A DNA stretch of 28,901 nucleotides from Candidatus Electronema aureum. GTDB lineage: Bacteria > Desulfobacterota > Desulfobulbia > Desulfobulbales > Desulfobulbaceae. A program made the position numbers and the translations under genes. Positions 1 to 28,901 of this stretch are shown here, one piece after another. How positions within the stretch are numbered: the first letter of the stretch is position 1; each line of letters opens with the position of its first letter. Location: positions 1-28,901 of the forward strand of contig NQJD01000031.1 of the NCBI GenBank assembly GCA_004284765.1, written 5' to 3'. The notes beneath the pieces are model-generated. The model was not told the DNA's origin and made no database searches. It saw nothing but the letters and a program-made list of their open reading frames with translations.

Positions 1-154
1 ATTACATCGAACTGGCAATACGGGCTTTTCTCCGCATTGAATATCATTGTTTTGTCAAAGGAATTTCTTAGTTCGAGGCAAAGACTGCCATCATCCGTGA
101 CGCTGTTCGGGCGTATTTGACGAAACCAATTTATACGCTTGAGCCTATCAATCT

Positions 155-370
155 TTATGCAACTGCGTAAGTCCTATTCCAGTCAGGATATTCTTTTGCA
201 GCCAGCCCCACGGGGCGTTCTTTGCGCAAGCGCGTCCTTTTCTCTGGCGCAATTGCTTTGATCTCTGCGACCGGCTTGTTACGGCGGCAGATGATCACGG
301 TTTCTCCGGCTTCGGCCTTAGCAAGGGCAGCGGAGAGGTGGCTTTTCATTTCGCTGATGTTGAGCTGCAT
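155..370 (-). CDS. Solo Phd/YefM-family (prevent-host-death-like) type II antitoxin / small DNA-binding protein, 71 aa
   Basis: This lies within track ORF 155..463 (-). I place the start at ATG 370..368 (M32 of the track ORF). It is preceded by AGGAGG (381..376) with a 5-nt spacer, and everything further upstream is CRISPR-repeat and promoter sequence. The product MQLNISEMKSHLSAALAKAEAGETVIICRRNKPVAEIKAI... has the N-terminal pattern typical of Phd/YefM antitoxins (I-x-E-x-K-x-x-L-S ... G-E-x-V-x-I ... K-P-V-A). The stop is TAA at 157..155. Family assignment is from memory of the motif, not from a search. Confidence 0.65.
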   Translation of the reverse strand: MQLNISEMKSHLSAALAKAEAGETVIICRRNKPVAEIKAIAPEKRTRLRKERPVGLAAKEYPDWNRTYAVA

Positions 371-388
371 ACGTTCCTCCTGTAAAAT
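360..388 (+). promoter_or_regulatory. Putative sigma70-type promoter for cas4-cas1-cas2 (TTGAGC-N17-TAAAAT)
   Basis: The -35 is TTGAGC at 360..365, followed by a 17-nt spacer and the -10 TAAAAT at 383..388. The predicted start is near 395-396, 2-3 nt before the solitary repeat. cas4 has no other obvious promoter and no Shine-Dalgarno sequence in 430..480. This is a consensus match only. Confidence 0.3.
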
Positions 389-397
389 GGATTTAAT

Positions 398-429
398 GTC
401 GCCTCCTTCACGGGGGCGTGGATTGAAAC
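398..429 (+). repeat. Solitary (orphan) CRISPR repeat, 32/32 identical to the array repeat and in the same orientation
   Basis: GTCGCCTCCTTCACGGGGGCGTGGATTGAAAC is read directly at 398..429. No second repeat or repeat-like sequence lies within about 35 nt on either side. It sits 51 nt upstream of the cas4 ATG. Confidence 0.95.
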
Positions 430-434
430 CATAC

Positions 435-463
435 ATCATAGATTGCGAGTCCATCCCTGTCAA
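435..463 (-). promoter_or_regulatory. Near-consensus sigma70 promoter driving the antitoxin gene (TTGACA-N17-TATGAT on the minus strand)
   Basis: On the minus strand, TTGACA is at 463..458, followed by a 17-nt spacer (457..441) and TATGAT at 440..435. The predicted start is around 428-432, at the edge of the solitary repeat (429). The 5' UTR would therefore be the antisense of the repeat. Confidence 0.5.
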
Positions 464-480
464 TCAACCTAGAAAATGCC

Positions 481-1110
481 ATGTACAGCGAAGACGACCT
501 CCTGATGATTTCCGCGCTGCAACATCTGTTATTCTGTCCCCGGCAATGTGCCCTTATTCACCTTGAGCAAATCTGGACGGAAAACCGTTTGACTGCTGAA
601 GGGCGACTGATGCACGAGCATGTGCATGAGGCGGGCAGTGATTCCAGAGGCGCGGTGCGGATTGAATACGACATGCCGCTACGTTCCCTGCGGCTGGGGC
701 TTTTAGGCCGGGCAGACGTGGTGGAAATGCAGCGGCAGCCAGATAAGACATGGCAGCCCTTTCCGGTGGAATACAAGCATGGCAAGCCGAAGAAAGACGA
801 CAGCGATTTGGTGCAGCTCTGCGCCCAAGCTCTCTGCTTGGAGGAAATGCTTGGCTGCGCGGTTCCAGCGGGTGCGTTTTATTATGGGGTGAAGAAGCGG
901 CGCACCGAGGTTGCCTTTGATCAGCGGCTGCGGCGAGTCACGGAAGAAGCAGCAGTCCAGCTCCATACGCTGCTTGCTGGCACCATCACACCTGCGCCGG
1001 AATACAACAAACGCTGCGAAAGCTGCTCCCTGATTGACACCTGTCTTCCCCAAACTGCTGGGCGAAGAGGCCGAGTTAGCAATTATATGACAAGGATGAC
1101 GACACTATGA
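481..1110 (+). CDS. cas4: CRISPR-associated exonuclease Cas4 (RecB-like, Fe-S cluster), type I-C style stand-alone Cas4
   Basis: 209 aa. The N-terminus ISALQHLLFCPRQCALIHLEQIW is typical of Cas4. The nuclease motif is D (GRADVV) ... E-x-K (PVEYKHGK). One N-terminal Cys plus the C-terminal C-x2-C-x5-C (CESCSLIDTC) match the 4Fe-4S ligands. Its stop overlaps the cas1 start (ATGA at 1107..1110). Confidence 0.9.
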   Translation: MYSEDDLLMISALQHLLFCPRQCALIHLEQIWTENRLTAEGRLMHEHVHEAGSDSRGAVRIEYDMPLRSLRLGLLGRADVVEMQRQPDKTWQPFPVEYKHGKPKKDDSDLVQLCAQALCLEEMLGCAVPAGAFYYGVKKRRTEVAFDQRLRRVTEEAAVQLHTLLAGTITPAPEYNKRCESCSLIDTCLPQTAGRRGRVSNYMTRMTTL

Positions 1111-2135
1111 AAACGCATCTCAACACCCTGTTTGTAACGACTCAAGGAGCCTATTTAGCCAAAGACGGAGAGACGGTGGCGGTGCGGGTTGAAGGTGAAA
1201 CCAAGCTCCGCCTGCCTGTGCATACCTTGGGCGGGATTGTCTGCTTTGGCAATGTCGGATGCAGCCCCTTTCTCCTTGGCTTTTGCGGCGAGAACAACGT
1301 GGCAGTCAGCTTTCTTGATGAGCATGGCCGCTTTCTGGCGCGGGTGATCGGGCCAGTCTCTGGCAATGTCCTTCTCAGGCGAGAGCAGTACCGCCGTGCC
1401 GATGATCTGGCCTTTTCTGCCCAGATGGCGCGCGCCTTTCTCAGCGGTAAAGTGGGCGGCAGTCGTAACGTGCTTTTGCGCGTGGTGCGCGATCATGGCG
1501 ACAAGGTGGATGTGGAACAGCTCAAGCAAGCCACTGACCGCCTTAGCGCATCGTTGCGGCGGCTTCAGGAAAAGTTGGATTTGGATGCAGTGCGAGGCGT
1601 GGAAGGCGATGCTGCCCATGTCTATTTTCAGCATTTCGATCATCTCATTCTGCGCAACAAAGAGGATTTCTTCTTCCGCGAACGCAGCCGCAGGCCGCCG
1701 CTTGATCGGGTCAACTGCCTGCTCTCGTTCCTTTACACGCTGGTTATGCACGATGTGCGTTCAGCCTTAGAATGCACCGGCCTTGATCCCGCAGTTGGTT
1801 TTCTTCATCGCGACCGACCGGGCCGTCCTGGTTTGGCGTTGGATATGATGGAAGAGTTTAGGCCGTTTGCTGATCGGATCGCCCTGTCGTTGATCAACCT
1901 TGGCCAGCTACAAGGCAAGGATTTCGTCGTTAGCTCCAGCGGCGGGGTACGGATGAAGGACGAGGCAAGGAAAGAGCTATTGACCGCTTATCAGGCGCGC
2001 AAGCAAGACGTGCTGGAACATCCTTTTCTGGGCGAAAAAATGCCGCTCGGTCTCTTCTTTCATACACAAGCCCTGCTCTTGGCCCGCTTCCTACGGGGTG
2101 ATTTAGACGGCTATCCGCCGGTGATGTTTGGATGA
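1107..2135 (+). CDS. cas1: CRISPR-associated integrase/endonuclease Cas1
   Basis: 342 aa. The N-terminus NTLFVTTQGAYLAKDGETVAV and the C-terminal catalytic region GFLHRDRPGRPGLALDMMEEFRP are characteristic of Cas1. It is translationally coupled to cas4. Confidence 0.95.
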   Translation: MKTHLNTLFVTTQGAYLAKDGETVAVRVEGETKLRLPVHTLGGIVCFGNVGCSPFLLGFCGENNVAVSFLDEHGRFLARVIGPVSGNVLLRREQYRRADDLAFSAQMARAFLSGKVGGSRNVLLRVVRDHGDKVDVEQLKQATDRLSASLRRLQEKLDLDAVRGVEGDAAHVYFQHFDHLILRNKEDFFFRERSRRPPLDRVNCLLSFLYTLVMHDVRSALECTGLDPAVGFLHRDRPGRPGLALDMMEEFRPFADRIALSLINLGQLQGKDFVVSSSGGVRMKDEARKELLTAYQARKQDVLEHPFLGEKMPLGLFFHTQALLLARFLRGDLDGYPPVMFG

Positions 2136-2150
2136 AGCCGGAACCAGGCT

Positions 2151-2184
2151 GTCTGTTGACGTTGTCTTAGGCGTGGATTAGCAC
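2151..2184 (+). repeat. Weak repeat-like fragment (psiR1): only the 3' handle part resembles the CRISPR repeat
   Basis: GCGTGGATTAGCAC at 2171..2184 matches the repeat 3' end GCGTGGATTGAAAC at 11/14. GTC at 2151..2153 matches the repeat start. The middle is unrelated and forms no hairpin. TTGACG at 2156..2161 could instead be a -35 box (TTGACG-N17-TAGCAC, with a poor -10). Confidence 0.3.
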
Positions 2185-2193
2185 CGGTTGGAT

Positions 2194-2237
2194 GCAACTC
2201 CCTGAGGTGTTGCTCAGACAAGTCCCCAGGGAGTTGC
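2194..2237 (+). other. Perfect 11-bp inverted repeat (stem-loop) in the cas1-cas2 intergenic region
   Basis: GCAACTCCCTG (2194..2204) is the exact reverse complement of CAGGGAGTTGC (2227..2237), with a 22-nt loop. No T-tract follows, so it is not an obvious intrinsic terminator. Function unknown. Confidence 0.6.
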
Positions 2238-2264
2238 CAAAGCCTGCGCAGAGAAAGAACTCTC

Positions 2265-2299
2265 GTCGCCGCCCTCTTCACGAGGGCGTGGATGGAAAC
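2265..2299 (+). repeat. Degenerate CRISPR repeat (psiR2) 15 nt upstream of the cas2 start codon
   Basis: GTCGCCGCCCTCTTCACGAGGGCGTGGATGGAAAC aligns to the array repeat with a 3-nt insertion and 4 substitutions. The TTCAC loop is identical. The stem is kept as 7 Watson-Crick pairs (2270..2276 with 2282..2288) through compensatory changes. The handle GTGGATGGAAAC differs from GTGGATTGAAAC by one base. Confidence 0.75.
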
Positions 2300-2314
2300 A
2301 GGATGGAAGAATAA

Positions 2315-2605
2315 ATGCTTGTTCTTGTCAGTTACGATGTCAAAACCAGTGATCCCGATGGCCCGAAACGACTGCGGCGAGTTGCCAAAATCTGCCGGGA
2401 TTACGGGCAGAGGGTGCAGTATTCGGTCTTTGAGTGCCTTGTGCCGCCGGATAAATGGGTAGTGATGCGGGCGCGGCTGATTCAGGAGATTGACGAGGAA
2501 AAGGACAGCCTGCGGTTTTATTTTCTCGGTGCCAATTGGAAAAACCGGGTTGAGCATATCGGGGCCAAAGTCGCGATTGACCAAGAAGGGCCGTTGATAG
2601 TATAG
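2315..2605 (+). CDS. cas2: CRISPR-associated endoribonuclease Cas2
   Basis: 96 aa. The N-terminus MLVLVSYDV carries the conserved Asp, and RLRRVAKICRDYGQRVQYSVFEC is the typical Cas2 ferredoxin-fold core. It lies just upstream of the leader and array. Confidence 0.95.
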   Translation: MLVLVSYDVKTSDPDGPKRLRRVAKICRDYGQRVQYSVFECLVPPDKWVVMRARLIQEIDEEKDSLRFYFLGANWKNRVEHIGAKVAIDQEGPLIV

Positions 2606-2809
2606 TTGCGAAATTGTGTTGTCGAGAAGAGAACTACGGGCGGCGCGAACCGCAAGCGAACAGGAAAAGCCGGGAGGTTCGCGGGCCGCGATATAAGGAG
2701 GTGAAAGCTGGAAAAAGCGTGTCACATGTTGGGCGAACGAAACGGAAGAACTATTGTTCGCAAAAATGCAGTAAAATGCCGAATCGCAGCCGTCAGTTGC
2801 GATTCGACA
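2606..2809 (+). promoter_or_regulatory. CRISPR leader (cas2-proximal), containing the presumed array promoter
   Basis: This is 204 bp of non-coding sequence between the cas2 stop and the first repeat. Repeat polarity (3' end ATTGAAAC, as in I-C crRNA 5' handles) makes + the transcribed strand. A candidate -10 TAAAAT is at 2772..2777, but I found no convincing -35. The track ORFs here (2614..2838, 2726..3040) run into the repeats and are not credible. Confidence 0.7.
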
Positions 2810-5800
2810 GTCGCCTCCTTCACGGGGGCGTGGATTGAAACGTCCGTAATTGTCGCGGCGGAAAAATCTGTAGCCGTGTCGCCTCCTTCACGGGGGCGTG
2901 GATTGAAACATCGGCCAAGGACATCGTGCAGGAACTCTGCGACCGTCGCCTCCTTCACGGGGGCGTGGATTGAAACTGGCACGGCGGACAGCACCAGAGA
3001 GTTGACGTTGCGTCGCCTCCTTCACGGGGGCGTGGATTGAAACTTCTTCGTGGCAGGCATACGTGCAGTCATTTCGAGTCGCCTCCTTCACGGGGGCGTG
3101 GATTGAAACTTCAGCAGGTCGCTGCTGTTGAAGATGAGGTACGTCGCCTCCTTCACGGGGGCGTGGATTGAAACACGCGGATCACGCTCGTCGTCATGCC
3201 GAACTTGGTCGCCTCCTTCACGGGGGCGTGGATTGAAACATACTCCAAGAGGTGACAGAATGAGATTTCCCGAAGTCGCCTCCTTCACGGGGGCGTGGAT
3301 TGAAACATTCCACAACTGGCAAGTGAGGTGTGAGAAATCTGTCGCCTCCTTCACGGGGGCGTGGATTGAAACGGTATGCTGTTAGTTACCTGTACGCTTT
3401 TACTTGGTCGCCTCCTTCACGGGGGCGTGGATTGAAACTTGGTTGACTGCTGGGTCGGGGATCAGCACAGACGTCGCCTCCTTCACGGGGGCGTGGATTG
3501 AAACATCCACGCCCTTGTCCAGCACCATGTCCTCGATCGTCGCCTCCTTCACGGGGGCGTGGATTGAAACGTAGCTGATCAATTCTGCCAACTGCCGCGA
3601 CTTGGTCGCCTCCTTCACGGGGGCGTGGATTGAAACACTCTTGCCCGCGCTACGGGCAGGCTCGGTAGCGTCGCCTCCTTCACGGGGGCGTGGATTGAAA
3701 CCTACTTGGGGCAATTAAACAAGCATCTGCCTTTGGTCGCCTCCTTCACGGGGGCGTGGATTGAAACAGTATCGGATGTCGGATAACTCTTGGCGCAGTC
3801 GCCTCCTTCACGGGGGCGTGGATTGAAACTGGTACTAGGTATTGGTTGCGTGCGGATGTAATAGTCGCCTCCTTCACGGGGGCGTGGATTGAAACAGTCT
3901 GTGCGCAATGATCTGATCTCTGCTGACCGTCGCCTCCTTCACGGGGGCGTGGATTGAAACTGCCGGGTTATCCCCCGTGTTTCACTTCGTGCCGTCGCCT
4001 CCTTCACGGGGGCGTGGATTGAAACCTTAGCCGCCGTCCCGCGCGGCCAAGTCTTAGTAGTCGCCTCCTTCACGGGGGCGTGGATTGAAACTAATGATAT
4101 TTTTGCTGCCGGATATATAATATCAGTCGCCTCCTTCACGGGGGCGTGGATTGAAACGGAAAACCTCTAAAGAGCTGAATCTCGAATTTGGTCGCCTCCT
4201 TCACGGGGGCGTGGATTGAAACCCAGCAGTTGTATCAGGCAATGACATGTCACCAAGTCGCCTCCTTCACGGGGGCGTGGATTGAAACTCCGGAATCCGC
4301 TGCCCCTACTGACCCGAAAAACGTCGCCTCCTTCACGGGGGCGTGGATTGAAACACACTGAAACGCACGAGGGCGACGAAATGCTGTACGTCGCCTCCTT
4401 CACGGGGGCGTGGATTGAAACCGAAGACAGACGATCAAGTCAGGATAGAGATCAAGTCGCCTCCTTCACGGGGGCGTGGATTGAAACCTCGTTGCCCTGC
4501 GCTTCCTGACCGGAGGGGATGTCGCCTCCTTCACGGGGGCGTGGATTGAAACACCGCCTCGTTAGCCTGCTCAATGACGGCGTGCTTGTCGCCTCCTTCA
4601 CGGGGGCGTGGATTGAAACTGGAAGAAGCTGGGAACAGGTATATTAGGGACAAGGGTCGCCTCCTTCACGGGGGCGTGGATTGAAACTGGTCAGCATTAG
4701 GATTGCCGTTATAAGTACCAGTCGCCTCCTTCACGGGGGCGTGGATTGAAACTTACCGCCAATGCCGAGGAACTTAACAGCGAGGAGTCGCCTCCTTCAC
4801 GGGGGCGTGGATTGAAACTTCCTGTAGCTGTAGTTCCCAAGCCGCCTCGCCGGTCGCCTCCTTCACGGGGGCGTGGATTGAAACAGCTCGGGACCAAGCT
4901 GTTTCTGTTGCGTTTAAGTCGCCTCCTTCACGGGGGCGTGGATTGAAACGTTAGAGGATGCCAATGCTCGTGCGCTGCCAATTGTCGCCTCCTTCACGGG
5001 GGCGTGGATTGAAACCCCGGCTGCCGGTTGCTTACTTTGACCACCAATTGTCGCCTCCTTCACGGGGGCGTGGATTGAAACAATTGAGCGATACTCATTA
5101 TTGCATTCTATGCCGGTCGCCTCCTTCACGGGGGCGTGGATTGAAACGTACTTAAAATTCTCCCACTCTAATATATGTAGGTCGCCTCCTTCACGGGGGC
5201 GTGGATTGAAACAGCAGGTCTTGTAAAAACGAGCTGGCGCGGTGCGGTCGCCTCCTTCACGGGGGCGTGGATTGAAACACCAGCCTGCTTGATGCCCTCT
5301 GCTCGCACCTTGTCGCCTCCTTCACGGGGGCGTGGATTGAAACCTTTTGCGCGGCCTCGGCGCGGGCCTTGGCGGCGGCAAGTCGCCTCCTTCACGGGGG
5401 CGTGGATTGAAACATCGCCTCGTTAGCCTGCTCAATGACGGTGTACGGTCGCCTCCTTCACGGGGGCGTGGATTGAAACACGGTTTCATTGCCCGTGCGA
5501 CTGGCGACCTCAAGCGTCGCCTCCTTCACGGGGGCGTGGATTGAAACCGCTGTGTGATGTTTTGCTTGCCATACACCATTGGTCGCCTCCTTCACGGGGG
5601 CGTGGATTGAAACAGTTCGCCACAGTTCAAAATTCCGGCAGGCACAAGTCGCCTCCTTCACGGGGGCGTGGATTGAAACTTGTCCCGCACACCCCAGACC
5701 TTGGCCCGACATAGACGGTCGCCTCCTTCACGGGGGCGTGGATTGAAACGGAATCTCCTATTGCCCATCCGAGCACACAGCGGTCGCCTCCTTCACGGGG

Positions 5801-8800
5801 GCGTGGATTGAAACGTACAGGCCGTTCATCGCCAGCGCAGCGGTGTATGGTCGCCTCCTTCACGGGGGCGTGGATTGAAACTGATAGAACAAAATGAAAT
5901 CCTTGCCCCAGACCGTCGCCTCCTTCACGGGGGCGTGGATTGAAACGGCCTTGAATTTAGCCTCAGCCTCCTTCGCCGCTGTCGCCTCCTTCACGGGGGC
6001 GTGGATTGAAACCAAATCGTCCCAGTCCATCTGGTTTGTTGCCCAGTCCGGTCGCCTCCTTCACGGGGGCGTGGATTGAAACTGTGTCAATAATAATCCG
6101 ATCACTCCCGGTTATGTCCGTCGCCTCCTTCACGGGGGCGTGGATTGAAACGTGCATCCGGGGAGCCAAGTACGGATGGCATCGTCGCCTCCTTCACGGG
6201 GGCGTGGATTGAAACATCGGCTCGTCAGCCTGCTCGATGGCGTGCGCCCTCGTCGCCTCCTTCACGGGGGCGTGGATTGAAACAGGTCAATATGGATCAG
6301 CTTAGGATCGGGTGAACCGTCGCCTCCTTCACGGGGGCGTGGATTGAAACCCACTGCTAAACTCCATGATTTATATATGAAGTCGTCGCCTCCTTCACGG
6401 GGGCGTGGATTGAAACAGGAGTGCTGTACTTAGGATTTGCCGGTTTAATGTCGCCTCCTTCACGGGGGCGTGGATTGAAACTTCTGATCCCGCCGCAGCT
6501 TCCGGCCCGGTCGCGTCGCCTCCTTCACGGGGGCGTGGATTGAAACCTGTTCCAGATGCTGTCCAATTTAATACCGGCTTGTCGCCTCCTTCACGGGGGC
6601 GTGGATTGAAACCTACAGCATGGGTTGACCCAGATACTGGCTGCGAGTCGCCTCCTTCACGGGGGCGTGGATTGAAACATGGTCGTCGTGGGCAGGCACC
6701 CGGTGAGGTATGTCGCCTCCTTCACGGGGGCGTGGATTGAAACAAGCTGCATTGTTGCTGATCAGCCTGCTGATTGCGTCGCCTCCTTCACGGGGGCGTG
6801 GATTGAAACTGCTGCGTTTAATGCTGGCGAGTGGAGTTATCATTGTCGCCTCCTTCACGGGGGCGTGGATTGAAACAAGCTCCTATGATGCAACACCATG
6901 CAGCATGTACCAAGTCGCCTCCTTCACGGGGGCGTGGATTGAAACTGATCCAGCTGATAACTCTGACGTTGGCTGGCTCGTCGCCTCCTTCACGGGGGCG
7001 TGGATTGAAACTTTCCAAACACAAAAAAAAACAGAAGCAAGAGAGGTCGCCTCCTTCACGGGGGCGTGGATTGAAACAGCTTGCGTGACTGGGTAAACAT
7101 CTGTAGCCACGGTCGCCTCCTTCACGGGGGCGTGGATTGAAACAAAGCTGGTGCAGCTGTAGCAGCAGAGGCTTGTGTCGCCTCCTTCACGGGGGCGTGG
7201 ATTGAAACGCGTCTGGTACGGTGGTTCAGATGTGCAGACGCGTCGCCTCCTTCACGGGGGCGTGGATTGAAACCTCAAGGAAAGCCCCATGTGGAGTCCT
7301 TTAACCGGTCGCCTCCTTCACGGGGGCGTGGATTGAAACACCGCCACGGGCATTTGATCGGATTGCATGATATCGTCGCCTCCTTCACGGGGGCGTGGAT
7401 TGAAACTTAGAATGCCAGAACGAGCGGTCAAACGCGGCTGGTCGCCTCCTTCACGGGGGCGTGGATTGAAACCGGGTTGATCAGACCACCTACGAAGGTG
7501 CGATCTAGTCGCCTCCTTCACGGGGGCGTGGATTGAAACACTTGAAAGAGCTTGACCGGTACGCATCTGGAAGTCGCCTCCTTCACGGGGGCGTGGATTG
7601 AAACTCTGTAATCTGGGGAAGGATTAAACAAAAAAGTCGCCTCCTTCACGGGGGCGTGGATTGAAACCTGCCGCGCCTTTGACATGGCGATAGATGGTGG
7701 GGTCGCCTCCTTCACGGGGGCGTGGATTGAAACCTCAGTCTCAAAGCCAGCCACAAGTCGATTACTGTCGCCTCCTTCACGGGGGCGTGGATTGAAACCT
7801 TCGTCTCCTTGTCCTGTGCCCGCAGTGCAGCTTCGTCGCCTCCTTCACGGGGGCGTGGATTGAAACCTCGCGAAAACAGTGCGGCGGACGTGCGGATATA
7901 TGTCGCCTCCTTCACGGGGGCGTGGATTGAAACTGTGGTCGACCCGAAACTGCGAAGTTGCGCTTGGTCGCCTCCTTCACGGGGGCGTGGATTGAAACCC
8001 GTCCGGGACAGATTGCAAACTGGGCAACAAATGTCGCCTCCTTCACGGGGGCGTGGATTGAAACATTCAGCAGGGCCGCTGCCTCATCTAACCGCCCGGT
8101 CGCCTCCTTCACGGGGGCGTGGATTGAAACCGCGACGCGAACCTCACGCCGTCGAGCGATGATAGGTCGCCTCCTTCACGGGGGCGTGGATTGAAACTCG
8201 CAATCTCTTGACATAGTTGGCGACGGTGTGTTTGTCGCCTCCTTCACGGGGGCGTGGATTGAAACAGGTGCTTCTGCGCAGCCTCGATATGCGGATTGTC
8301 GTCGCCTCCTTCACGGGGGCGTGGATTGAAACACTGCCCGCCGCCATAGGCAGGGCAAGCGGCGGAGTCGCCTCCTTCACGGGGGCGTGGATTGAAACCA
8401 GTCGCCTGCCTTGGACAGCCGCGCGGCTTCCGTCGCCTCCTTCACGGGGGCGTGGATTGAAACGCTAATAAAGATGAAGAAATACGGCATGTCGCTGGGT
8501 CGCCTCCTTCACGGGGGCGTGGATTGAAACGTTCGCTTAATGCCATTATAGCCCCCATTATGCTGTCGCCTCCTTCACGGGGGCGTGGATTGAAACACTG
8601 GATGCTGCAATACTGGCCGTCGCTTTGGCGAGTCGCCTCCTTCACGGGGGCGTGGATTGAAACACGTGCTCGGCAGTCACCTCTTTGACGCGGCTGTACG
8701 TCGCCTCCTTCACGGGGGCGTGGATTGAAACGCGCTGGCTGTTCTGCTGCCTCATTCCGTTTTTGTCGCCTCCTTCACGGGGGCGTGGATTGAAACCTAC

Positions 8801-11800
8801 GCTGCTGCCGCCAAAGCAGCAGCAGCGGCGTCGCCTCCTTCACGGGGGCGTGGATTGAAACCAGTCGAATCAGATAGCCAGCCTTCACTTTGCGCGTCGC
8901 CTCCTTCACGGGGGCGTGGATTGAAACACGGACGGGCGCCGCAGGCAACGCGGGCTGCTTCGTCGCCTCCTTCACGGGGGCGTGGATTGAAACATTGGCT
9001 TTGATCGCAAGATACCTTTCCCGCAGGTCGCCTCCTTCACGGGGGCGTGGATTGAAACCTCCGCCTTGCGCAGGGATAACATCCAGCTCTTGTCGCCTCC
9101 TTCACGGGGGCGTGGATTGAAACGGAAAATCGTCTCAATCCTGTGCGGCTGCGTCTTGGTCGCCTCCTTCACGGGGGCGTGGATTGAAACGTCCATACTT
9201 ACCTCTCTCTGCTGATTGACCTCTGTCGCCTCCTTCACGGGGGCGTGGATTGAAACATCGCCGGTGCCAAGAATGGAGTTTTTGACGTCGCCTCCTTCAC
9301 GGGGGCGTGGATTGAAACAGTATCCCCAGCGGGATTGCAGGCGGCTGCTGCCAGTCGCCTCCTTCACGGGGGCGTGGATTGAAACCCCCGTTTGGCTGCG
9401 AACGAGGGAACAGGCTAAAACGTCGCCTCCTTCACGGGGGCGTGGATTGAAACTGGGGCCACACGATGCGCTGTGGCGTAGTAGTAGGTCGCCTCCTTCA
9501 CGGGGGCGTGGATTGAAACTGAGTCCAAATGGACTGTCAGCGGTGCGCTGCTCCGTCGCCTCCTTCACGGGGGCGTGGATTGAAACGTACGGCAAGATTG
9601 TCGCGGTCAAAGAGACTGTGCGTCGCCTCCTTCACGGGGGCGTGGATTGAAACCGCTCAACTTCAGCGCGGTTGTTATTGACTGACCGTCGCCTCCTTCA
9701 CGGGGGCGTGGATTGAAACTGGGCTATCCGCGCTGAACCGGCCTTAATCTCTGTCGCCTCCTTCACGGGGGCGTGGATTGAAACAGACCAGCAGCGAGGG
9801 ATTGCTTTGAAGAAACGGTCGCCTCCTTCACGGGGGCGTGGATTGAAACCTCCGGCAAGGAGGGAGGATATGCGGGATGCCACGTCGCCTCCTTCACGGG
9901 GGCGTGGATTGAAACACCATTGAGCACTGTCTTGGTGATCAGCACGGCGAGTCGCCTCCTTCACGGGGGCGTGGATTGAAACACCATCAGCGACATATCA
10001 CAGGTTTGTGCGGTGTGTCGCCTCCTTCACGGGGGCGTGGATTGAAACGAAGAGTCTGCCGCTAAGTCTGGGGTGATATTAGTCGCCTCCTTCACGGGGG
10101 CGTGGATTGAAACAGTTCGCCGTCCGCTCATCTTCAACCTCCTTGAGCGTCGCCTCCTTCACGGGGGCGTGGATTGAAACTGTTCTAATCGGAAGAGCGC
10201 GCGCATTGCCTTCCAGTCGCCTCCTTCACGGGGGCGTGGATTGAAACCTGCGCAACAGATGAGTGTGCGGGTGTCTCGGAGGTCGCCTCCTTCACGGGGG
10301 CGTGGATTGAAACCATCTATTCGCCCTCCTTCGGCAGCCGGGTGCGCGTCGCCTCCTTCACGGGGGCGTGGATTGAAACGATGATTAATAATCTTGATTG
10401 GCTGCCTTCCTACGTCGCCTCCTTCACGGGGGCGTGGATTGAAACACCTTTTCTATCGATACCAGCTAACCAATTGGCTGTCGCCTCCTTCACGGGGGCG
10501 TGGATTGAAACCAAATGTGGACGATACCAAGCGAGAGCGGCAACGGTCGCCTCCTTCACGGGGGCGTGGATTGAAACTGATCCAGCTGATAATTCCGATG
10601 TTGGTTGGCTGTCGCCTCCTTCACGGGGGCGTGGATTGAAACATCCATATCACCTCCGCGCATAAGCAGCTTTGCCGTCGCCTCCTTCACGGGGGCGTGG
10701 ATTGAAACACTGGACGGTCACGCTAAAGAGGAGGACGGCAAAGTCGCCTCCTTCACGGGGGCGTGGATTGAAACTTGGTCGGAGCACTGATCAGGGGGAG
10801 GATTGCAGGTCGCCTCCTTCACGGGGGCGTGGATTGAAACCCGCCGCTGCCGTCCTCCTCAACCCGGAACAGCAGTCGCCTCCTTCACGGGGGCGTGGAT
10901 TGAAACAACGTTAATCCTACTTGAGGGCATTATGTTTAGGCGTCGCCTCCTTCACGGGGGCGTGGATTGAAACACTCGACTGGTTGATCAACGGGAAAGA
11001 ATAAAAAGTCGCCTCCTTCACGGGGGCGTGGATTGAAACAAATCCCCGCTGCGGTCGATTTTGACTGAGGGCGGTGGTCGCCTCCTTCACGGGGGCGTGG
11101 ATTGAAACGTTCTGCCGCCGACAATCTGGTCGCATTATCGCGTCGCCTCCTTCACGGGGGCGTGGATTGAAACTGTCTCCTCGTTGGTATTGCTGTTTTT
11201 AATCTTGTCGCCTCCTTCACGGGGGCGTGGATTGAAACAAAGTGCCCCTGACTTCCTCCGATCCCGGCAAGGGTCGCCTCCTTCACGGGGGCGTGGATTG
11301 AAACTTTCCAGACGTGGCAGGATTTTGGGGTTCGTTTCGTGTCGCCTCCTTCACGGGGGCGTGGATTGAAACAGAGCGGAAGTTTATCAGGATACTCAAG
11401 CGTAGGTCGCCTCCTTCACGGGGGCGTGGATTGAAACAGAACAAATATTCTTCATATTTTCATTGTACATGTCGCCTCCTTCACGGGGGCGTGGATTGAA
11501 ACATTAGCAGGAATTATTAAGGAACCCTGTTTAAAGGTCGCCTCCTTCACGGGGGCGTGGATTGAAACTTTATGGCAGCATCATTGTGTCGTTCTAATGC
11601 GGTCGCCTCCTTCACGGGGGCGTGGATTGAAACTACAATTTCGACGAGTTGGTGATTGGCAATGCAGGTCGCCTCCTTCACGGGGGCGTGGATTGAAACT
11701 GCCATTTTCGTCACTCCGGGAACTCTGTTGCTGGTCGCCTCCTTCACGGGGGCGTGGATTGAAACATCAACCGGGCTGTATCAACCAGCGGCTTTGCGCT

Positions 11801-14800
11801 CGTCGCCTCCTTCACGGGGGCGTGGATTGAAACGTAGCTGCCTGCCGCGCCGTTGACGTGGCGGTAGGTCGCCTCCTTCACGGGGGCGTGGATTGAAACA
11901 CGTTCCAGCCCCCTGTCGCGGGGGCTGGATGCGGTCGCCTCCTTCACGGGGGCGTGGATTGAAACTCATAGCTGTCCGCGTCCTGCACAATCCGCGTAAA
12001 GTCGCCTCCTTCACGGGGGCGTGGATTGAAACTGTATCTGCTGCTGCCAGCTCGCCGCCACAGCAGTCGCCTCCTTCACGGGGGCGTGGATTGAAACTGC
12101 TGATTGATCTCTGCGCCTCTGTCAACTAACCATGTCGCCTCCTTCACGGGGGCGTGGATTGAAACGGCAGCCGGGTGCGCACCCGGCCCGCCGGGTGAAG
12201 TCGCCTCCTTCACGGGGGCGTGGATTGAAACCCCAGCGATTCGGGCGCGGAACAACACCACTTTGGCGTCGCCTCCTTCACGGGGGCGTGGATTGAAACT
12301 TTGCCATCTTGGTCAACGGATCAGGTAGGTCAAGTCGCCTCCTTCACGGGGGCGTGGATTGAAACCCGGCAATTGGCGCGGCCTGCTCCAGCAGCACATG
12401 TCGCCTCCTTCACGGGGGCGTGGATTGAAACCTATCTCAATTCCCGTTTACTGCGCCGCGATAGAGTCGCCTCCTTCACGGGGGCGTGGATTGAAACTGA
12501 TAGACCAAAAATACCGGCAGCTATTGGCCCGTCGCCTCCTTCACGGGGGCGTGGATTGAAACCAAAATGCTGATAATTTTGACCCAGCACAAGTTGCGGT
12601 CGCCTCCTTCACGGGGGCGTGGATTGAAACGGGCCGCCCGCAGAAGTGGGCCAAATTGAAGAAGGTCGCCTCCTTCACGGGGGCGTGGATTGAAACATCA
12701 CCACGCCAACAAGCTGGCTCGCATCAGCGGGGTCGCCTCCTTCACGGGGGCGTGGATTGAAACACCAGCGGCAGCGGAGATGCAGCGTGGGAGCTGGTCG
12801 CCTCCTTCACGGGGGCGTGGATTGAAACCGGTTGCGGAAGAAATCCAGAGAGCAACCGCGCTGGTCGCCTCCTTCACGGGGGCGTGGATTGAAACGTATG
12901 CCCGCCCATAGCAAGCCAGCCGGGTGCCCAGTCGCCTCCTTCACGGGGGCGTGGATTGAAACAGGGGCGGCGGTATCGGTTTCACGTCCTCCTGTGTCGC
13001 CTCCTTCACGGGGGCGTGGATTGAAACATCAGCGCACCGGCCCCGGCAGACTAATTGGAGGTCGCCTCCTTCACGGGGGCGTGGATTGAAACACCGGCGA
13101 GCAGGTCAAGGACTGGGTGGAGCAGGTCGCCTCCTTCACGGGGGCGTGGATTGAAACATGCCACCATGCCCCGCACCCTACTAAAACTCACGTCGCCTCC
13201 TTCACGGGGGCGTGGATTGAAACAACCATCCTTGGAATCATCTGGCGGAGCTGACCAGTCGCCTCCTTCACGGGGGCGTGGATTGAAACAGGGGATGAGG
13301 TGGTGAAGTACCTCGCCGCAGAGGTCGCCTCCTTCACGGGGGCGTGGATTGAAACCGCTCGGCCGCGCGGGGCTGTGGACTGTCAAAGGTCGCCTCCTTC
13401 ACGGGGGCGTGGATTGAAACCCGCCAGCCACGTTGTGAGCTATACGCTGACCAGTCGCCTCCTTCACGGGGGCGTGGATTGAAACCCGCCAGCCACGTTG
13501 TGAGCTATACGCTGACCAGTCGCCTCCTTCACGGGGGCGTGGATTGAAACTGCGGGTGTTGATGTGCAATCTATTATCCCAAAAAGTCGCCTCCTTCACG
13601 GGGGCGTGGATTGAAACTCGTGATAATCGCTTCAAGCCGCTGGGCCGTGGTCGTCGCCTCCTTCACGGGGGCGTGGATTGAAACAGCCAGCTCTTCGATA
13701 TGCCGAGATTTTTCGCTGGTCGCCTCCTTCACGGGGGCGTGGATTGAAACTCAAAAACGCAGTACTGCCGAACACTACAGAGAGTCGCCTCCTTCACGGG
13801 GGCGTGGATTGAAACAGCTTGCCGCCCGCGTTGTCACCGGCAATGAGATGGTCGCCTCCTTCACGGGGGCGTGGATTGAAACGTGGATGAGGCCGCCTGC
13901 ACCAGCGGCGGCCTCTGGTCGCCTCCTTCACGGGGGCGTGGATTGAAACATCGGATGGCGGGCTATGTGGTTTTTCGCCAGCAGTCGCCTCCTTCACGGG
14001 GGCGTGGATTGAAACCGCGCTGGAACAGGCCATGAACGCGCTGTCCGGTGGTCGCCTCCTTCACGGGGGCGTGGATTGAAACGCCCCCGCTTTGGCCTTC
14101 GCCCGCTGCACCGCCGTCGCCTCCTTCACGGGGGCGTGGATTGAAACTTCGTCCCGCTGCTCGGCCACAACAGCAGCGGAAAGTCGCCTCCTTCACGGGG
14201 GCGTGGATTGAAACAAAATTTGGCGCAGAAGTTCGGCGCAAATTGTGCGTCGCCTCCTTCACGGGGGCGTGGATTGAAACCCGTGCGCATTGAAATCGTG
14301 GTGGCTGAATCATGTCGCCTCCTTCACGGGGGCGTGGATTGAAACTTTATCAGGGCGCATTTTATGGCGACGTGTACGGGTCGCCTCCTTCACGGGGGCG
14401 TGGATTGAAACATGCGCTGGGCACCGCCTCCGCCCAGCGCATGAAGTCGCCTCCTTCACGGGGGCGTGGATTGAAACACAATCCACATCCGCCACGCTGG
14501 GATATTGGCCGCAGTCGCCTCCTTCACGGGGGCGTGGATTGAAACGGCTCCTGCCTTTGGATTTGGAAATTCTATGCCGTCGCCTCCTTCACGGGGGCGT
14601 GGATTGAAACACGGCGGCGGATTTGGCATCTGGGCTGCCCCTGGTCGCCTCCTTCACGGGGGCGTGGATTGAAACCAGTTGTTTTTTTTCATTGCCCGCC
14701 GCAGCCGGTGTCGCCTCCTTCACGGGGGCGTGGATTGAAACACGGGCCGCGTCAGCACGCACTTGCGCGGCTGCGTCGCCTCCTTCACGGGGGCGTGGAT

Positions 14801-17800
14801 TGAAACGCCAAGAGCCGCGATGTCGCGGTTGGCAGTTAGGTCGCCTCCTTCACGGGGGCGTGGATTGAAACAGTGAGCTGGCAGATGTATGCGTATCCAC
14901 CTGCGTCGCCTCCTTCACGGGGGCGTGGATTGAAACTGCTGCCGTCGCACTGACCGGCAGCAGAAGAAGAACGTCGCCTCCTTCACGGGGGCGTGGATTG
15001 AAACTTCCGCTCTGCACCGCAGCAGCAGCACCTCAACGTCGCCTCCTTCACGGGGGCGTGGATTGAAACTCGTTTTTCGGAACGATGACTCCTTGCGGCC
15101 AGCGTCGCCTCCTTCACGGGGGCGTGGATTGAAACCCTGCGCTGCATGTCACCATGCCGCCGCCGAACAGTCGCCTCCTTCACGGGGGCGTGGATTGAAA
15201 CATCAACGAATATCCAATCGTATTCGCTATCTTCGTCGCCTCCTTCACGGGGGCGTGGATTGAAACTGTCCGTGAGCATCGCTGGGTACGCAAATCTGCT
15301 GTCGCCTCCTTCACGGGGGCGTGGATTGAAACTAATGGGAAAAGCGCGCGCGTTGTCCTCTAATGAAGGTCGCCTCCTTCACGGGGGCGTGGATTGAAAC
15401 GCCAGTGAAATGCTTGGAGCACATCACCCGTTTGTCGCCTCCTTCACGGGGGCGTGGATTGAAACCCGCGCTGCTGCCGTACCAGCGCGGGTGGATTGGT
15501 CGCCTCCTTCACGGGGGCGTGGATTGAAACGGACGGCTCGGCTGGGACAAGACGCAGCCGCACCGGTCGCCTCCTTCACGGGGGCGTGGATTGAAACGTG
15601 TTGGACTGTATGTTGTCTGCTCTGGCTGTCGTCGCCTCCTTCACGGGGGCGTGGATTGAAACTGGTCGAGGAAAAACGGCCTTCCGCCAGCCCGATGTCG
15701 CCTCCTTCACGGGGGCGTGGATTGAAACTTGATAATAAGAAATAAAGTGTGGTCACTTGTTGTCGCCTCCTTCACGGGGGCGTGGATTGAAACGTGGGGA
15801 CGTACACCGTCATTGAGCAGGCTGACGAGTCGCCTCCTTCACGGGGGCGTGGATTGAAACAGGCAATTTGCAGCCTCCTGCCGTACAGGAAACGTCGCCT
15901 CCTTCACGGGGGCGTGGATTGAAACACCTGCCGCCAGCACCTGCTCTGCGTCTGCTGCGCGTCGCCTCCTTCACGGGGGCGTGGATTGAAACGTGCATGT
16001 GCGGATGCCACAAACCGCTGTTTTGAGTCGCCTCCTTCACGGGGGCGTGGATTGAAACCTGCTGAAGGGAGCGACGGCGGTACTGGACAGAGGTCGCCTC
16101 CTTCACGGGGGCGTGGATTGAAACGTACCATCTATCGCCACGTCAAAGGCGCGGCAGGGTCGCCTCCTTCACGGGGGCGTGGATTGAAACTTTTTCCTGC
16201 TGAAAAGGATTAGGCCCCAGACAGGTCGCCTCCTTCACGGGGGCGTGGATTGAAACGGGATCAGCCCCTGCCCGGATCAGGTGATGGATGCGGTCGCCTC
16301 CTTCACGGGGGCGTGGATTGAAACCTCTCATAGGCACCGTTTAGCTGCGTGACGCAGGTCGCCTCCTTCACGGGGGCGTGGATTGAAACGATTCCGGTAC
16401 AGACGCTGGCTACCGAGGTCAGTCGCCTCCTTCACGGGGGCGTGGATTGAAACTCCTCTTCCTGCTCCTACTGCTGTCCCTTTTGCGTCGCCTCCTTCAC
16501 GGGGGCGTGGATTGAAACGTCTTCGCGCACTTTTGCTCCCGCTTTAGTGAAAGTCGCCTCCTTCACGGGGGCGTGGATTGAAACTTTATACTAATCAAGC
16601 ATTTGCCTTTGGCGTTAGTCGCCTCCTTCACGGGGGCGTGGATTGAAACTGCCAAGTCCGGTAAGGAACCTGAGCAAGGTCGCCTCCTTCACGGGGGCGT
16701 GGATTGAAACATCGGAATCCAAGCAATCCCAAGCAGGAAGCGTACAGTCGCCTCCTTCACGGGGGCGTGGATTGAAACCTGTAGAAGTATCAGTACATTG
16801 TTTAGCACCGAGTCGCCTCCTTCACGGGGGCGTGGATTGAAACCTTTCACGCCGGGCAGCAGCATGAGCAAACGGCGGTCGCCTCCTTCACGGGGGCGTG
16901 GATTGAAACCTTGGCGTGGCCGTCCAAGGAGAAGGCATCCAAGTCGCCTCCTTCACGGGGGCGTGGATTGAAACCCTGCGATGGTTTTGAGATAATCATT
17001 AGATATAGGTCGCCTCCTTCACGGGGGCGTGGATTGAAACATGAAACTCGTCGCCTGATCTTCGACAAGGATGGTCGCCTCCTTCACGGGGGCGTGGATT
17101 GAAACAGATGAAGAGGAGGAAAAAAGCGATTTGAACGCAGGTCGCCTCCTTCACGGGGGCGTGGATTGAAACCGGTCAGGTGTCTGCGAAGGTCGCCGCC
17201 GCTGTTGGTCGCCTCCTTCACGGGGGCGTGGATTGAAACAGCACCCAGCGAACGCACTCGTCATAGGCCCTTAGTCGCCTCCTTCACGGGGGCGTGGATT
17301 GAAACTTGGTGGAAATCATGACCGCGCCAGTGCAACAGAGTCGCCTCCTTCACGGGGGCGTGGATTGAAACTGGAAAACACCGAGGAAAGTTTCGTTCTG
17401 GAAGAGTCGCCTCCTTCACGGGGGCGTGGATTGAAACAACAGGTAGCGGCGGCTGAAGATGAGGTACGTCTCGTCGCCTCCTTCACGGGGGCGTGGATTG
17501 AAACGCACATATAATCTGAGGGTGTCATATTCAACGCCGTCGCCTCCTTCACGGGGGCGTGGATTGAAACGTAATCCTCGCGTCCGTCGGTTGCTGTATG
17601 CCCGTCGCCTCCTTCACGGGGGCGTGGATTGAAACGTCCCCGTCAAAATCGAAATCACAGTCTTTAATATGTCGCCTCCTTCACGGGGGCGTGGATTGAA
17701 ACTCGTCTCTCAGCGTGGATCCAAAACTGGTGGCAGTCGCCTCCTTCACGGGGGCGTGGATTGAAACCTCCTCACGCAATCCTGATGTTGACCTTCAGCA

Positions 17801-26800: not shown

Positions 26801-28767
26801 GCCACGTTGAAACGGTCTATGCAAGTCGCCTCCTTCACGGGGGCGTGGATTGAAACACATGCCCTCCTTGCTGTGCAGATCAAACAGCACGTCGCCTCCT
26901 TCACGGGGGCGTGGATTGAAACAGCATCTTTGGCGACCTCAACCTGCCGGACATCAGTCGCCTCCTTCACGGGGGCGTGGATTGAAACACCCTGACCTCT
27001 TTTTTCGGGCAAGTTGCTCTTGTCGCCTCCTTCACGGGGGCGTGGATTGAAACTCTCCCTGAAGCTCGTCGTGCAATTTGCGCCCCGTCGCCTCCTTCAC
27101 GGGGGCGTGGATTGAAACACCCCAAGCAGGTCAGGTTCAATTCCTGATCGTGTCGCCTCCTTCACGGGGGCGTGGATTGAAACAGGCTATGGAAACCCCG
27201 GTGCATCAGTACGGCGATGTCGCCTCCTTCACGGGGGCGTGGATTGAAACACCTTGTTTGCGAAACGCAGGAGCGCAACCTGAGTCGCCTCCTTCACGGG
27301 GGCGTGGATTGAAACTCGCTGGGCATCAAGCTATGGTTGACAATACGATGTCGCCTCCTTCACGGGGGCGTGGATTGAAACATGGAGTTGGCTCCGGTAA
27401 AATAATCTATATTATGTCGCCTCCTTCACGGGGGCGTGGATTGAAACATAGTTGCAAGTAGATGAATTTGACGTGTCAAACGTCGCCTCCTTCACGGGGG
27501 CGTGGATTGAAACTGTTGGTTCTTGCAGGCGATGGTTGATCTGGCTGGTCGCCTCCTTCACGGGGGCGTGGATTGAAACACCAAGAAACAGGATGCCGAA
27601 GCAGTATCATGAGGTCGCCTCCTTCACGGGGGCGTGGATTGAAACGTTGTCAGTCATTTACTATCTCCAGATAAAGGTTGTCGCCTCCTTCACGGGGGCG
27701 TGGATTGAAACGATTAAGCCGTCGAACATCACCGATCACCGCACTGTCGCCTCCTTCACGGGGGCGTGGATTGAAACTTCCTTCTGTTGGTTCTGTGTCT
27801 GCTGCGGCTTGGTCGCCTCCTTCACGGGGGCGTGGATTGAAACTCGGTGCATCTGATTTTGTTAGCAAGCATTCTTACGTCGCCTCCTTCACGGGGGCGT
27901 GGATTGAAACTCTTAGATTGACGTGGGTCTTATTGTCAATCTAGTCGCCTCCTTCACGGGGGCGTGGATTGAAACTCTCCCGGCCTTGCCCACCTTTTTG
28001 TTTTCTTAAGTCGCCTCCTTCACGGGGGCGTGGATTGAAACCAGTCTGCGGCGGTGATCAGGCAAATTTGATGATCGTCGCCTCCTTCACGGGGGCGTGG
28101 ATTGAAACACATTGTAGCCGGATACCGTGGGTAGAGGAACTGTCGCCTCCTTCACGGGGGCGTGGATTGAAACTACGGGATGCGTTGCCGGTGTTATTGT
28201 TCTTTAAGTCGCCTCCTTCACGGGGGCGTGGATTGAAACACCTTCATAGGTTATCAAGTCACGGATAAAGGCAAGTCGCCTCCTTCACGGGGGCGTGGAT
28301 TGAAACAGTGGAAAAGCTGAAGGTGAAGTAACCCAAAGTTGTCGCCTCCTTCACGGGGGCGTGGATTGAAACTTCTCGCATTATATTTCATTTTAACGGC
28401 TGCTCGTCGCCTCCTTCACGGGGGCGTGGATTGAAACATGGTCTGCCATTGGTGTATCCGGGCCGCAGTTCGTCGCCTCCTTCACGGGGGCGTGGATTGA
28501 AACAGGCACTGATACAGTCCAGCAGGCCGCTTATAATGTCGCCTCCTTCACGGGGGCGTGGATTGAAACCAGCCGCAAATCCCTGAAGAACATAAGATTG
28601 CCAGTCGCCTCCTTCACGGGGGCGTGGATTGAAACTTGATTGATAATTTGGCATCAGCACAAGGACTTGTCGCCTCCTTCACGGGGGCGTAGATTGAAAC
28701 AGATTCAGCACGATCAGAGGAACAAACAACATGACGTCGCCTCCTTCACGGGGGCGTGGATTGAAAC
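2810..28767 (+). CRISPR. CRISPR array, type I-C-like 32-nt repeat GTCGCCTCCTTCACGGGGGCGTGGATTGAAAC; 394 repeats / 393 spacers by manual parse
   Basis: I tracked every repeat start from 2810 (R1) to 28736 (R394). The mean unit is 65.97 bp. Spacers are 29-38 nt, mostly 33-34. The repeat has a 7-bp stem (CGCCTCC/GGGGGCG) with a TTCAC loop and the GTGGATTGAAAC tail shared by known I-C repeats. The array follows cas4-cas1-cas2. Overlapping spacers imply a TTC PAM. Confidence 0.99.
28669..28700 (+). repeat. Only variant repeat noticed in the array (penultimate repeat R393, G23A: ...GCGTAGATTGAAAC)
   Basis: Position 28691 is A where all other repeats have G. The change lies in the 11-nt 5'-handle portion, outside the hairpin. 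The terminal repeat (28736..28767) is perfect. Confidence 0.9.
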
Positions 28768-28901
28768 AAGGTTAACCTAATGTGCAACTCTTTTAAACTT
28801 GATTAGGCAGCAATCAAGCCATCCAAGTCAAGTGGAGGGCGGTTATAGACCAAATTAAGGAAGACACAAACAGTGTGCGCCAAAATTTTACGAATCAGAC
28901 G

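Follow-up and report, generated by a model that had tools for sequence, protein, structure and literature searches.

Degenerate mini-CRISPRs of the CreA/CreR type are found in haloarchaeal type I-B systems and also in types I-E and V-A. In type I-C, solitary repeat units (CRISIS) make crRNA-like RNAs that control cargo defence genes, repressing the cargo promoters via TTC-flanked partial matches (bioRxiv 10.1101/2024.12.27.630466). A survey of repeat-like sequences reported, as totals for type I-C, a repeat-like sequence in 34% of loci and a mini-array in 7%, and it also saw cargo-less loci that keep a repeat-like element beside relatives with a toxin-antitoxin cargo (PMC10120712). The location of a repeat-like element before cas2 has not been described previously. 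Such an element is present in a type I-C locus of Candidatus Electronema aureum, within the window analysed here, which is the whole 28,901-nucleotide stretch of contig NQJD01000031.1. The cas1-cas2 gap in which it lies is probably a scar of CRISPR-array material, left by recombination and now in decay, in which the ribosome-binding site of cas2 is located; a dedicated regulatory device appears unlikely.

Organization of the locus

The window contains a type I-C adaptation module (cas4-cas1-gap-cas2-leader) and a 394-repeat array. At its 5' end, a Phd-type antitoxin gene on the minus strand (155..370) is followed by a series of plus-strand features, namely, a solitary perfect repeat (398..429) located 51 nt 5' of cas4; cas4 itself (481..1110); the type I-C cas1 gene (1107..2135; TIGR03640 Cas1c, E=4.6e-152); the 179-bp gap (2136..2314); cas2 (2315..2605; TIGR01573); the leader, which lies between cas2 and the array; the CRISPR array (2810..28767), whose repeat family is the source of the pseudo-repeat described below; and the array trailer AACCTAATGTGCAACTCTTT (28774..28793). 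The solitary repeat at 398..429 is a related phenomenon, separate from the cas1-cas2 gap. The consensus of the array repeats is GTCGCCTCCTTCACGGGGGCGTGGATTGAAAC. The terminal repeat is perfect, and the penultimate one (28671..28702) has a G-to-A change in the handle (GTAGATTGAAAC), at a position that is also A in the pseudo-repeats of two relatives, L002 and L081. The Cas1 protein of the window shares 96% identity with its counterpart in Candidatus Electronema nielsenii and 95% with that in Electronema sp. PJ.

The 10 kb upstream of the window carries Lon, integrase, BrnTA, IS transposase, and Phd genes, and no effector genes, including that for Cas5c, were found in this interval. In addition, the Cas5c clusters with at least 89% identity to the Cas5c of L002 had no member from the 2,938,053-bp chromosome OW818638.1. 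The gap is probably transcribed jointly with cas4-cas1-cas2, because neither terminator-like nor promoter-like sites were called inside 2136..2314, and the region is the 5' untranslated region of cas2. An Rfam scan of positions 1..3000, with E values of up to 1, gave weak CRISPR-DR9 matches on true repeats only and left the gap blank.

Length of the cas1-cas2 gap

The initial annotation placed the gap at the correct coordinates, and its premise that cas1 and cas2 normally abut or overlap was borne out by 152 related I-C loci, taken from both genomes and metagenomes. The gap was 20 bp or shorter in 129 of these loci, with a mode of 9 to 12 bp, a length that holds the ribosome-binding site alone, and it exceeded 20 bp in the other 23; the 179-bp gap is therefore unusual. 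An assembly artefact was excluded by the closed 2.94-Mb chromosome (GCA_942492785.1, OW818638.1) and by an independent MAG contig, L001, which has the same gap, mostly 100% identical. The window and L001 match at every position in 2077..2202 and 2229..2268, and their cas1 4-fold sites differ by 24%.

The cas1-cas2 junction in relatives

The cas1-cas2 junction is an insertion hot spot, and within the cable-bacteria clade its contents are changeable. L012 and L167 to L169 have an intact RelB-YafQ toxin-antitoxin pair at the junction, L174 has RelB only, and L162 to L165 have a 188-bp remnant of the pair; REP-like GC hairpins were found at the same site in L009 to L011 and L170. In L002 and L081, a 21-nt tandem repeat with about 13 copies precedes a pseudo-repeat, and L081 also contains a two-repeat mini-array in the leader of a toxin-antitoxin pair at the same junction. 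MITE-like inserts and one GIY-YIG gene occupy the junction in other I-C loci, and in L011 a mini-array lies elsewhere, between cas7 and cas4. Viral contigs scanned with Cas1 yielded only two distant loci, which were left out of the comparison.

Pseudo-repeats located directly 5' of the cas2 ribosome-binding site were found in three I-C lineages: Electronema (the window, L001, L002, and L081), L015, and the group L132/L134/L138/L139. Across these lineages, the distance to the cas2 ATG is 15 to 24 nt. The position is conserved in the window and L002, where the pseudo-repeat ends 15 nt before the ATG, and L001 and L081 have the same pseudo-repeat and following 15-mer, with cas2 outside what is seen. 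The L001 copy bridges the two types, since its 5' half is window-like and its 3' half, together with the 15-mer, is L002-like. The nearest relatives of L015 and the L132 group, L087/L088 (97% Cas1 identity) and L145 (92 to 94%), are without a pseudo-repeat. In the distant relatives L166 and L175, only ATTGAA...ATGAGG is left beside the ribosome-binding site.

A degenerate repeat with an intact hairpin

The plus-strand segment 2265..2299 (GTCGCCGCCCTCTTCACGAGGGCGTGGATGGAAAC), termed psiR2, differs from the array repeat by one 3-nt insertion and, depending on gap placement, three or four substitutions. Its local alignment score against the repeat is 46, with other non-array positions on either strand scoring 21 or less, and the part from 2270 to 2299 is an 87% match over 30 nt. 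The features first described for this segment were confirmed: the stem CGCCCTC/GAGGGCG forms 7 Watson-Crick pairs around a TTCAC loop, and the 11-nt handle TGGATGGAAAC ends 15 nt 5' of the cas2 ATG. RNAfold assigned -16.4 kcal/mol to the psiR2 hairpin, compared with -12.4 kcal/mol for the array repeat. The 15 nt after the handle (2300..2314, plus strand), which include the cas2 ribosome-binding site, contain AGGATGGAAGAATAA in the window and read GGATGAGGTGCAATC or GGATAAGGTGCAATC in relatives. In this genome, psiR2 is proposed to be a fairly young pseudo-repeat.

The differences between this stem and the array consensus had been interpreted as compensatory and, hence, as a sign of selection on RNA structure. 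The closest outgroup contradicts that interpretation, because the stem of its array repeat (L003; GTCGCCCCCTTCACGGGGGCG...) is already CGCCCCC/GGGGGCG; the U.G pair therefore arose in the Electronema array and was not repaired in the pseudo-repeat. Only one true double change is left in the psiR2 stem, from C:G to U:A, and it may have originated while the repeat was still in an array. When the suggested check for covariation was applied to the four orthologues (the window, L001, L002, and L081), none of the 7 pairs had changed on both sides, and the repeat hairpin imposed on the four-sequence alignment paired 64% of the cells, the same as in shuffled and slid controls. Furthermore, three of the four orthologous pseudo-repeats are without the hairpin and the bases recognised by Cas5c (U22-G23-G24). 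L001 has a C:A stem mismatch and C for U22, and L002 and L081 have CAG for UGG and different folds; U22 is gone in all three, and G23 is also gone in L002 and L081. In the pseudo-repeat of L132, the stem is wholly gone.

The divergence of the pseudo-repeats ranged from 0.5 to 1.5 times that of the cas1 4-fold sites and was inconsistent among pairs. Within types, the values were 0.11 versus 0.24 for the window and L001, 0.21 versus 0.42 for L002 and L081, and 0.21 versus 0.47 for L132 and L138; in the remaining pairs, they were 0.40 versus 0.26 and 0.42 versus 0.45. A within-type rate of about half of the 4-fold rate is compatible with some constraint.

Other elements inside the gap

A possible older pseudo-repeat, psiR1, lies on the plus strand at 2151..2184, with only its 3' part recognisable (GGCGTGGATT, 10/10) and no hairpin. 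The handle-like GCGTGGATTAGCAC noted at 2171..2184 is indeed present and includes this exact 10-mer, but its score is within the background of the 2.8-kb non-array region. The psiR1 handle plus 9 nt resembles the psiR2 handle plus 8 nt at 17 of 23 positions. The evidence that 2151..2184 may be a second repeat remnant is weak. The second handle-like match, GTTGGATGCAAC at 2187..2198, exists at 8 of 12 positions, but this is chance level, and the similarity of the segment to the 3' end of cas1 (GTTTGGATGAAG) is no lower.

The inverted repeat formed by 2194..2204 and 2227..2237 is a perfect 11-bp match, as reported, but its standing as a stem-loop element was lost on comparison with L001. The two arms are the outer halves of two diverged 23-nt tandem-repeat units (2194..2237, plus strand), and the number of units varies, from these two in the window to 2.8 to 3.2 copies in L001; the inverted repeat therefore belongs to a repeat whose copy number varies.

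An arrangement of the gap as repeat-spacer-repeat, with a 36-nt spacer obtained by excising a 44-nt palindrome, was considered and is a post hoc fit, with the upstream remnant at background score. Part of this 36-nt "spacer" instead resembles cas2 nt 53..113 (p about 0.03).

Proposed origin by recombination of array material

The initial annotation offered three explanations, of which an old array-end relic has the best support, from the decay across orthologues and from the junction copies in relatives. TTC is the type I-C PAM. In L015 and L132, the sequence after the pseudo-repeat aligns gaplessly to the native sequence that runs from the end of cas1 across the junction into cas2 in their nearest relatives, and the corresponding alignment of L138 has a single 1-nt gap. 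The L015 and L132/L138 alignments begin at the base directly after the C-terminal Phe codon of Cas1, with 33 of 36 and 29 of 33 positions identical, respectively, and the Phe codon before the copied segment is TTC in L132 and TTT in the others. The joining of a repeat end to the first post-PAM base is the geometry of spacer acquisition, from which we infer that a self-derived spacer recombined with the sequence it had been taken from. L138 retains the pseudo-repeat alone, and L015 retains an apparent decayed cas2 start fused to the pseudo-repeat.

The last codons of the window cas1 gene are ...ATG TTT GGA TGA, and relatives carry the closing 6 nt, GGATGA, again directly 3' of the pseudo-repeat. 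The Electronema 15-mer GGATGAGGTGCAATC is made up of this cas1 terminal GGATGA, which follows TTT, and a 9-nt junction, 9 nt being among the commonest I-C gap lengths. The Electronema data are consistent with a self-spacer origin, to a lesser degree than those from L015 and L132 and short of proof; the reconstruction of the native Electronema junction is uncertain, since L166 may be a deletion derivative.

In L001, the pseudo-repeat and 15-mer abut a 20-nt stretch that is the array trailer in the window (28774..28793), which links the cas2-proximal pseudo-repeat to the array end. Such a join would be expected if a second copy of the repeat and 15-mer sat at the array end, and it could reflect either a recombination of the cas2-proximal and array-end copies or a collapse of the two by the assembler. 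The pseudo-repeat in the L132 gap was also considered as a paralogue of the array end and was rejected, as the terminal repeat and trailer there are unrelated.

In the proposed mechanism, the array would gain a spacer from the cas1-cas2 junction of its own or a related locus, with the protospacer starting after the TT(C/T) Phe codon. Unequal homologous recombination between this spacer and its source would duplicate the cas2-leader-array segment and thereby place an array repeat, another copy of the cas1 end, and the former junction ahead of the new cas2 copy. The redundant upstream copy would then be whittled down, to the stop codon of cas1 itself. The remnants in the window would be the possible older remnant at 2151..2184, the short tandem repeat, psiR2 at 2265..2299, and the 15 nt with the cas2 ribosome-binding site. 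Among the 2,964 spacers in the arrays analysed, none matched a cas1-cas2 junction.

Some observations point the other way. The absence of a junction-matching spacer from these arrays counts against the self-spacer step, and the window hairpin, which is perfect and stronger than that of the array repeat, counts against a scar. The stretches of 100% identity between the window and L001, despite the 24% difference at cas1 4-fold sites, count against a purely neutral scar.

Alternative explanations

The Cas5c of B. halodurans needs U22-G23-G24 and the stem base, and the loop and 5' overhang are dispensable (PMC8524198). By sequence only, psiR2, with CGCCCTC-TTCAC-GAGGGCG directly followed by TGGATGGAAAC, has the substrate features for Cas5c (Cas5d) set out in that study. 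A cut after 2288 is biochemically plausible for this genome's copy, and under the scar explanation too, if Cas5c is made in the cell, the cas4-cas1-cas2 transcript may be cut there as a by-product. A selected processing or binding site is a further step, which we regard as rather unlikely. Under this explanation, Cas5c would remain bound to the 11-nt handle once it had cut after 2288, the ~30 nt that follow would be coated by Cas7, which would hide the cas2 ribosome-binding site and AUG, and Cas2 output would follow effector abundance. The window copy has what such a site would need (a 7-bp stem, a pentaloop, G followed by UGG at the cut, and an 11-nt tail), no terminator was called in the gap, and solitary I-C repeats are cut likewise by Cas5c (bioRxiv 10.1101/2024.12.27.630466). 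The recurrence of pseudo-repeats 15 to 24 nt before the cas2 ATG in three lineages and the slower divergence of some pairs relative to 4-fold sites would also favour it. However, comparison of the orthologues gave no support to the suggestion that a Cas5c recognition site tunes cas2: the determinants are missing through the C:A mismatch and U22C change in L001 and the CAG for UGG and other hairpins in L002 and L081, covariation is absent among the four orthologues, and the L132 stem is wholly gone. The Cas5c gene itself is absent from the 10 kb upstream, and the close Cas5c clusters include none from the chromosome.

A more general version of this idea, in which pre-cas2 pseudo-repeats arose at least three times in type I-C and were kept because they are functional, is improbable. 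Cas5c or Cascade would load on the cas2 leader, made up of the handle and a copy of the cas1 end, and would then either cover the cas2 ribosome-binding site or act as a roadblock by binding the 3' end of cas1 next to its TT(C/T); in both cases, Cas2 output and spacer uptake would depend on the amount of free effector. For the L132 guide, positions 1-5 and 7-8 would match the cas1 end flanked by TTC.

It is similarly doubtful that psiR2, alone or with 2151..2184, is a gene for a crRNA-like RNA of the CreR/CreA/CRISIS type, with which Cascade would repress a partially matched promoter without cleavage. Elements of this type are known in I-C between cas3 and cas5c (bioRxiv 10.1101/2024.12.27.630466), and the 34% of I-C loci with repeat-like sequences (PMC10120712) provide a broad precedent. 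The degeneration pattern also fits on paper, with only the 3' part of the upstream remnant present and the downstream hairpin kept, but the stem is lacking at 2151..2184, and a cut is therefore not expected there. In addition, the would-be spacer is 80 nt in the window and ~102 nt in L001, with a variable tandem repeat, and the post-repeat seed differs between the window (AGGATGGAAG) and its relatives (GGATGAGGTG). The suggested search for TTC-flanked targets was carried out with guides starting after 2299, after 2184, and after 429 and with the 36-nt spliced "spacer," requiring a TTC PAM; none of these guides had a target in the locus or the 10 kb upstream. The best TTC-flanked runs were 4 to 6 nt, which in the locus was no better than shuffled guides; the 10 kb upstream was scanned without a shuffled control. 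The CreA/CreR-like mini-CRISPR of the initial annotation thus has no local target, and its seed is not conserved.

The clear two-repeat mini-array of L081, in a toxin-antitoxin leader at the same junction, and the mini-array of L011 between cas7 and cas4 are further points in favour of a regulatory RNA. By eye, the L081 spacer was a promising match to the toxin-antitoxin promoter, but the match was nonsignificant, being equalled by 1871 of 5000 shuffles (37%), and the search of the L011 and L002 loci with their own mini-array spacers found no target.

These rivals stay alive because the hairpin is intact in the window, the gap flanks of the window and L001 are identical, and some pseudo-repeat pairs have diverged more slowly than synonymous sites. 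A 40-residue protein translationally coupled to cas2 is very improbable: the 40-codon open reading frame at 2192..2314 exists and ends against the cas2 ATG, as described, but it traverses the tandem repeat and the pseudo-repeat, a protein-family search gave no match, and the closest relative, L001, has a 22-nt indel that disrupts the frame, so that this absence of conservation in practice refutes it.

Implications

[quoted passage not shown] The more useful by-product is the junction signature seen in two lineages outside the window's clade, in which the pseudo-repeat is followed by a copy of the cas1 end that begins at the base next to TTC/TTT. If a wide survey confirms this signature, it would show that a cas operon can be rearranged when a self-derived spacer recombines with the sequence from which it came, and it would also explain the origin of some standalone repeats, raw material for regulatory crRNA-like RNAs.

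Comparison with known systems

Like degenerate terminal array repeats, psiR2 is a repeat that has diverged and borders array material, and the L001 pseudo-repeat is joined to the trailer; in contrast to them, psiR2 lies upstream of cas2 and not at an array end, and the window's own terminal repeat is perfect. The likeness to CreA/CreR is in the two degenerate repeats, the first with the 3' part and the second with the 5' part. The differences are that the spacer is 80 to 102 nt and variable, that there is neither a complementary promoter nor a toxin RNA, and that the upstream remnant is doubtful. CRISIS units are located between cargo genes and cas5c and have a 3' hairpin and, at the cargo promoter, a conserved partial target flanked by TTC, whereas the window unit sits before cas2, has the cas2 start as its downstream "spacer," and has no local target.

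The closest counterpart is the standalone repeat-like class (PMC10120712, 2023), for which a match of at least 16 bp to the locus's own repeat, outside the array and intergenic in the cas locus, is the criterion, and psiR2 shows all of these features. Judged from its sequence, the window element is a member of this class, lacking the conserved seed of the regulatory subclass and, in the locus and the 10 kb upstream, its target. Type I-C is given there as totals only and the cas1-cas2 location is undescribed, and the window element differs in being without a local target and scar-like in appearance; it is alike in that it is a degenerate copy of its own repeat, intergenic in the cas operon, in the same orientation, and kept in position in close relatives.

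Insertions at the cas1-cas2 junction

Across type I-C loci in general, the cas1-cas2 junction appears to be a hot spot for insertions. Several loci of the Electronema clade carried a RelB-YafQ toxin-antitoxin pair between the two genes, including L012 (1068..1699), L167 (2463..3013), L168, and L169; L174 had only RelB. The cas1-cas2 gaps of L162 to L165 contained a decayed 188-bp remnant of this pair. In L081, a mini-array consisting of two pseudo-repeats (degenerate copies of the array repeat) separated by 25 nt (about 1601..1694) lay after the toxin-antitoxin promoter and before the antitoxin start codon. The gaps of L081 and L002 (7086..7371) also held, upstream of the pseudo-repeat, a degenerate 21-nt tandem repeat of about 13 copies, organized in an 84-nt super-unit with 95% identity. 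In other I-C loci (L027, L045, L055, and L076), the junction was occupied by a 423-bp gene for a GIY-YIG nuclease or by MITE-like elements bearing long inverted repeats at their ends (172 to 286 bp).

Comparison with Ca. Electronema nielsenii F5

Window positions 2077..2202 and 2229..2268 were 100% identical to the Ca. Electronema nielsenii F5 locus (L001), although the 4-fold sites of cas1 differed by 24% between the same two genomes; the pseudo-repeat, placed between and beyond these stretches, showed 4 differences in 35 nt. This perfect identity could reflect either recent recombination or constraint. At L001 2177..2211, the pseudo-repeat and the following 15 nt were joined directly to the trailer of the window array (window 28774..28793), and cas2, the leader, and the array were lacking. 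The join is due either to a genuine loss of these elements or to collapse of the assembly.

The window array and its genomic surroundings

The window array (2810..28767, about 26 kb) comprised 394 repeats, all identical except the penultimate one (28671..28702, GTAGATTGAAAC), separated by spacers of mostly 33 to 36 nt. Two spacers starting near 4553 and 5414, about 860 bp apart, had near-identical beginnings, a[c/t]cgcctcgttagcctgctcaatga. The array and adaptation module were set apart from any effector genes, as judged from window 1..480 and the 10 kb upstream (L171 1..10000); the genes upstream of the module encoded Lon, a phage-type integrase, BrnTA, an IS DDE transposase, and Phd. No Cas5c of this chromosome was found in these 10 kb or among Cas5c clusters with at least 89% identity to the L002 protein. 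In the relatives L162 to L164, cas8c, cas7, and cas4 were contiguous.

Solitary repeats and cas1-matching spacers

A solitary repeat with the same sequence as the array repeat (window 398..429) was located between the divergent Phd antitoxin gene and cas4, 51 nt upstream of the latter. Transcription from a plus-strand promoter-like site, TTGAGC-17-TAAAAT (360..388), would be predicted to begin at about this repeat, and the 36 nt following the repeat covered a minus-strand promoter-like site (463..435). Repeat-like elements occupied the equivalent cas7/cas4 position in L002 (4490..4524, directly ahead of an inserted Fic gene) and in L011 (5052..5150, a mini-array of a repeat, 30 nt, and a pseudo-repeat). 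No target with a TTC PAM was found in the locus or the 10 kb upstream for a guide starting after window 429, and the L002 and L011 mini-array spacers had no target in their own loci. Array spacers at L066 7682 and 7748 and at L051 10561 showed 17- to 20-nt exact or near-exact matches within cas1 of other I-C loci and may have been taken from competing I-C systems.

L015, one of the loci with a cas1-cas2 pseudo-repeat, had an array of just a single repeat (7659..7690) downstream of cas2. Solitary pseudo-repeats were also present about 5 kb upstream of cas1 in L015 (1078..1110), L030 (785..817), and L028 (848..880), with those of L015 and L030 sharing GTCACCCTATTAAWTRGGGTTGTGGATTGAAAC followed by AATGTGATGAT. 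All three are candidates for the type of solitary repeat unit already described near cas5c in I-C systems.
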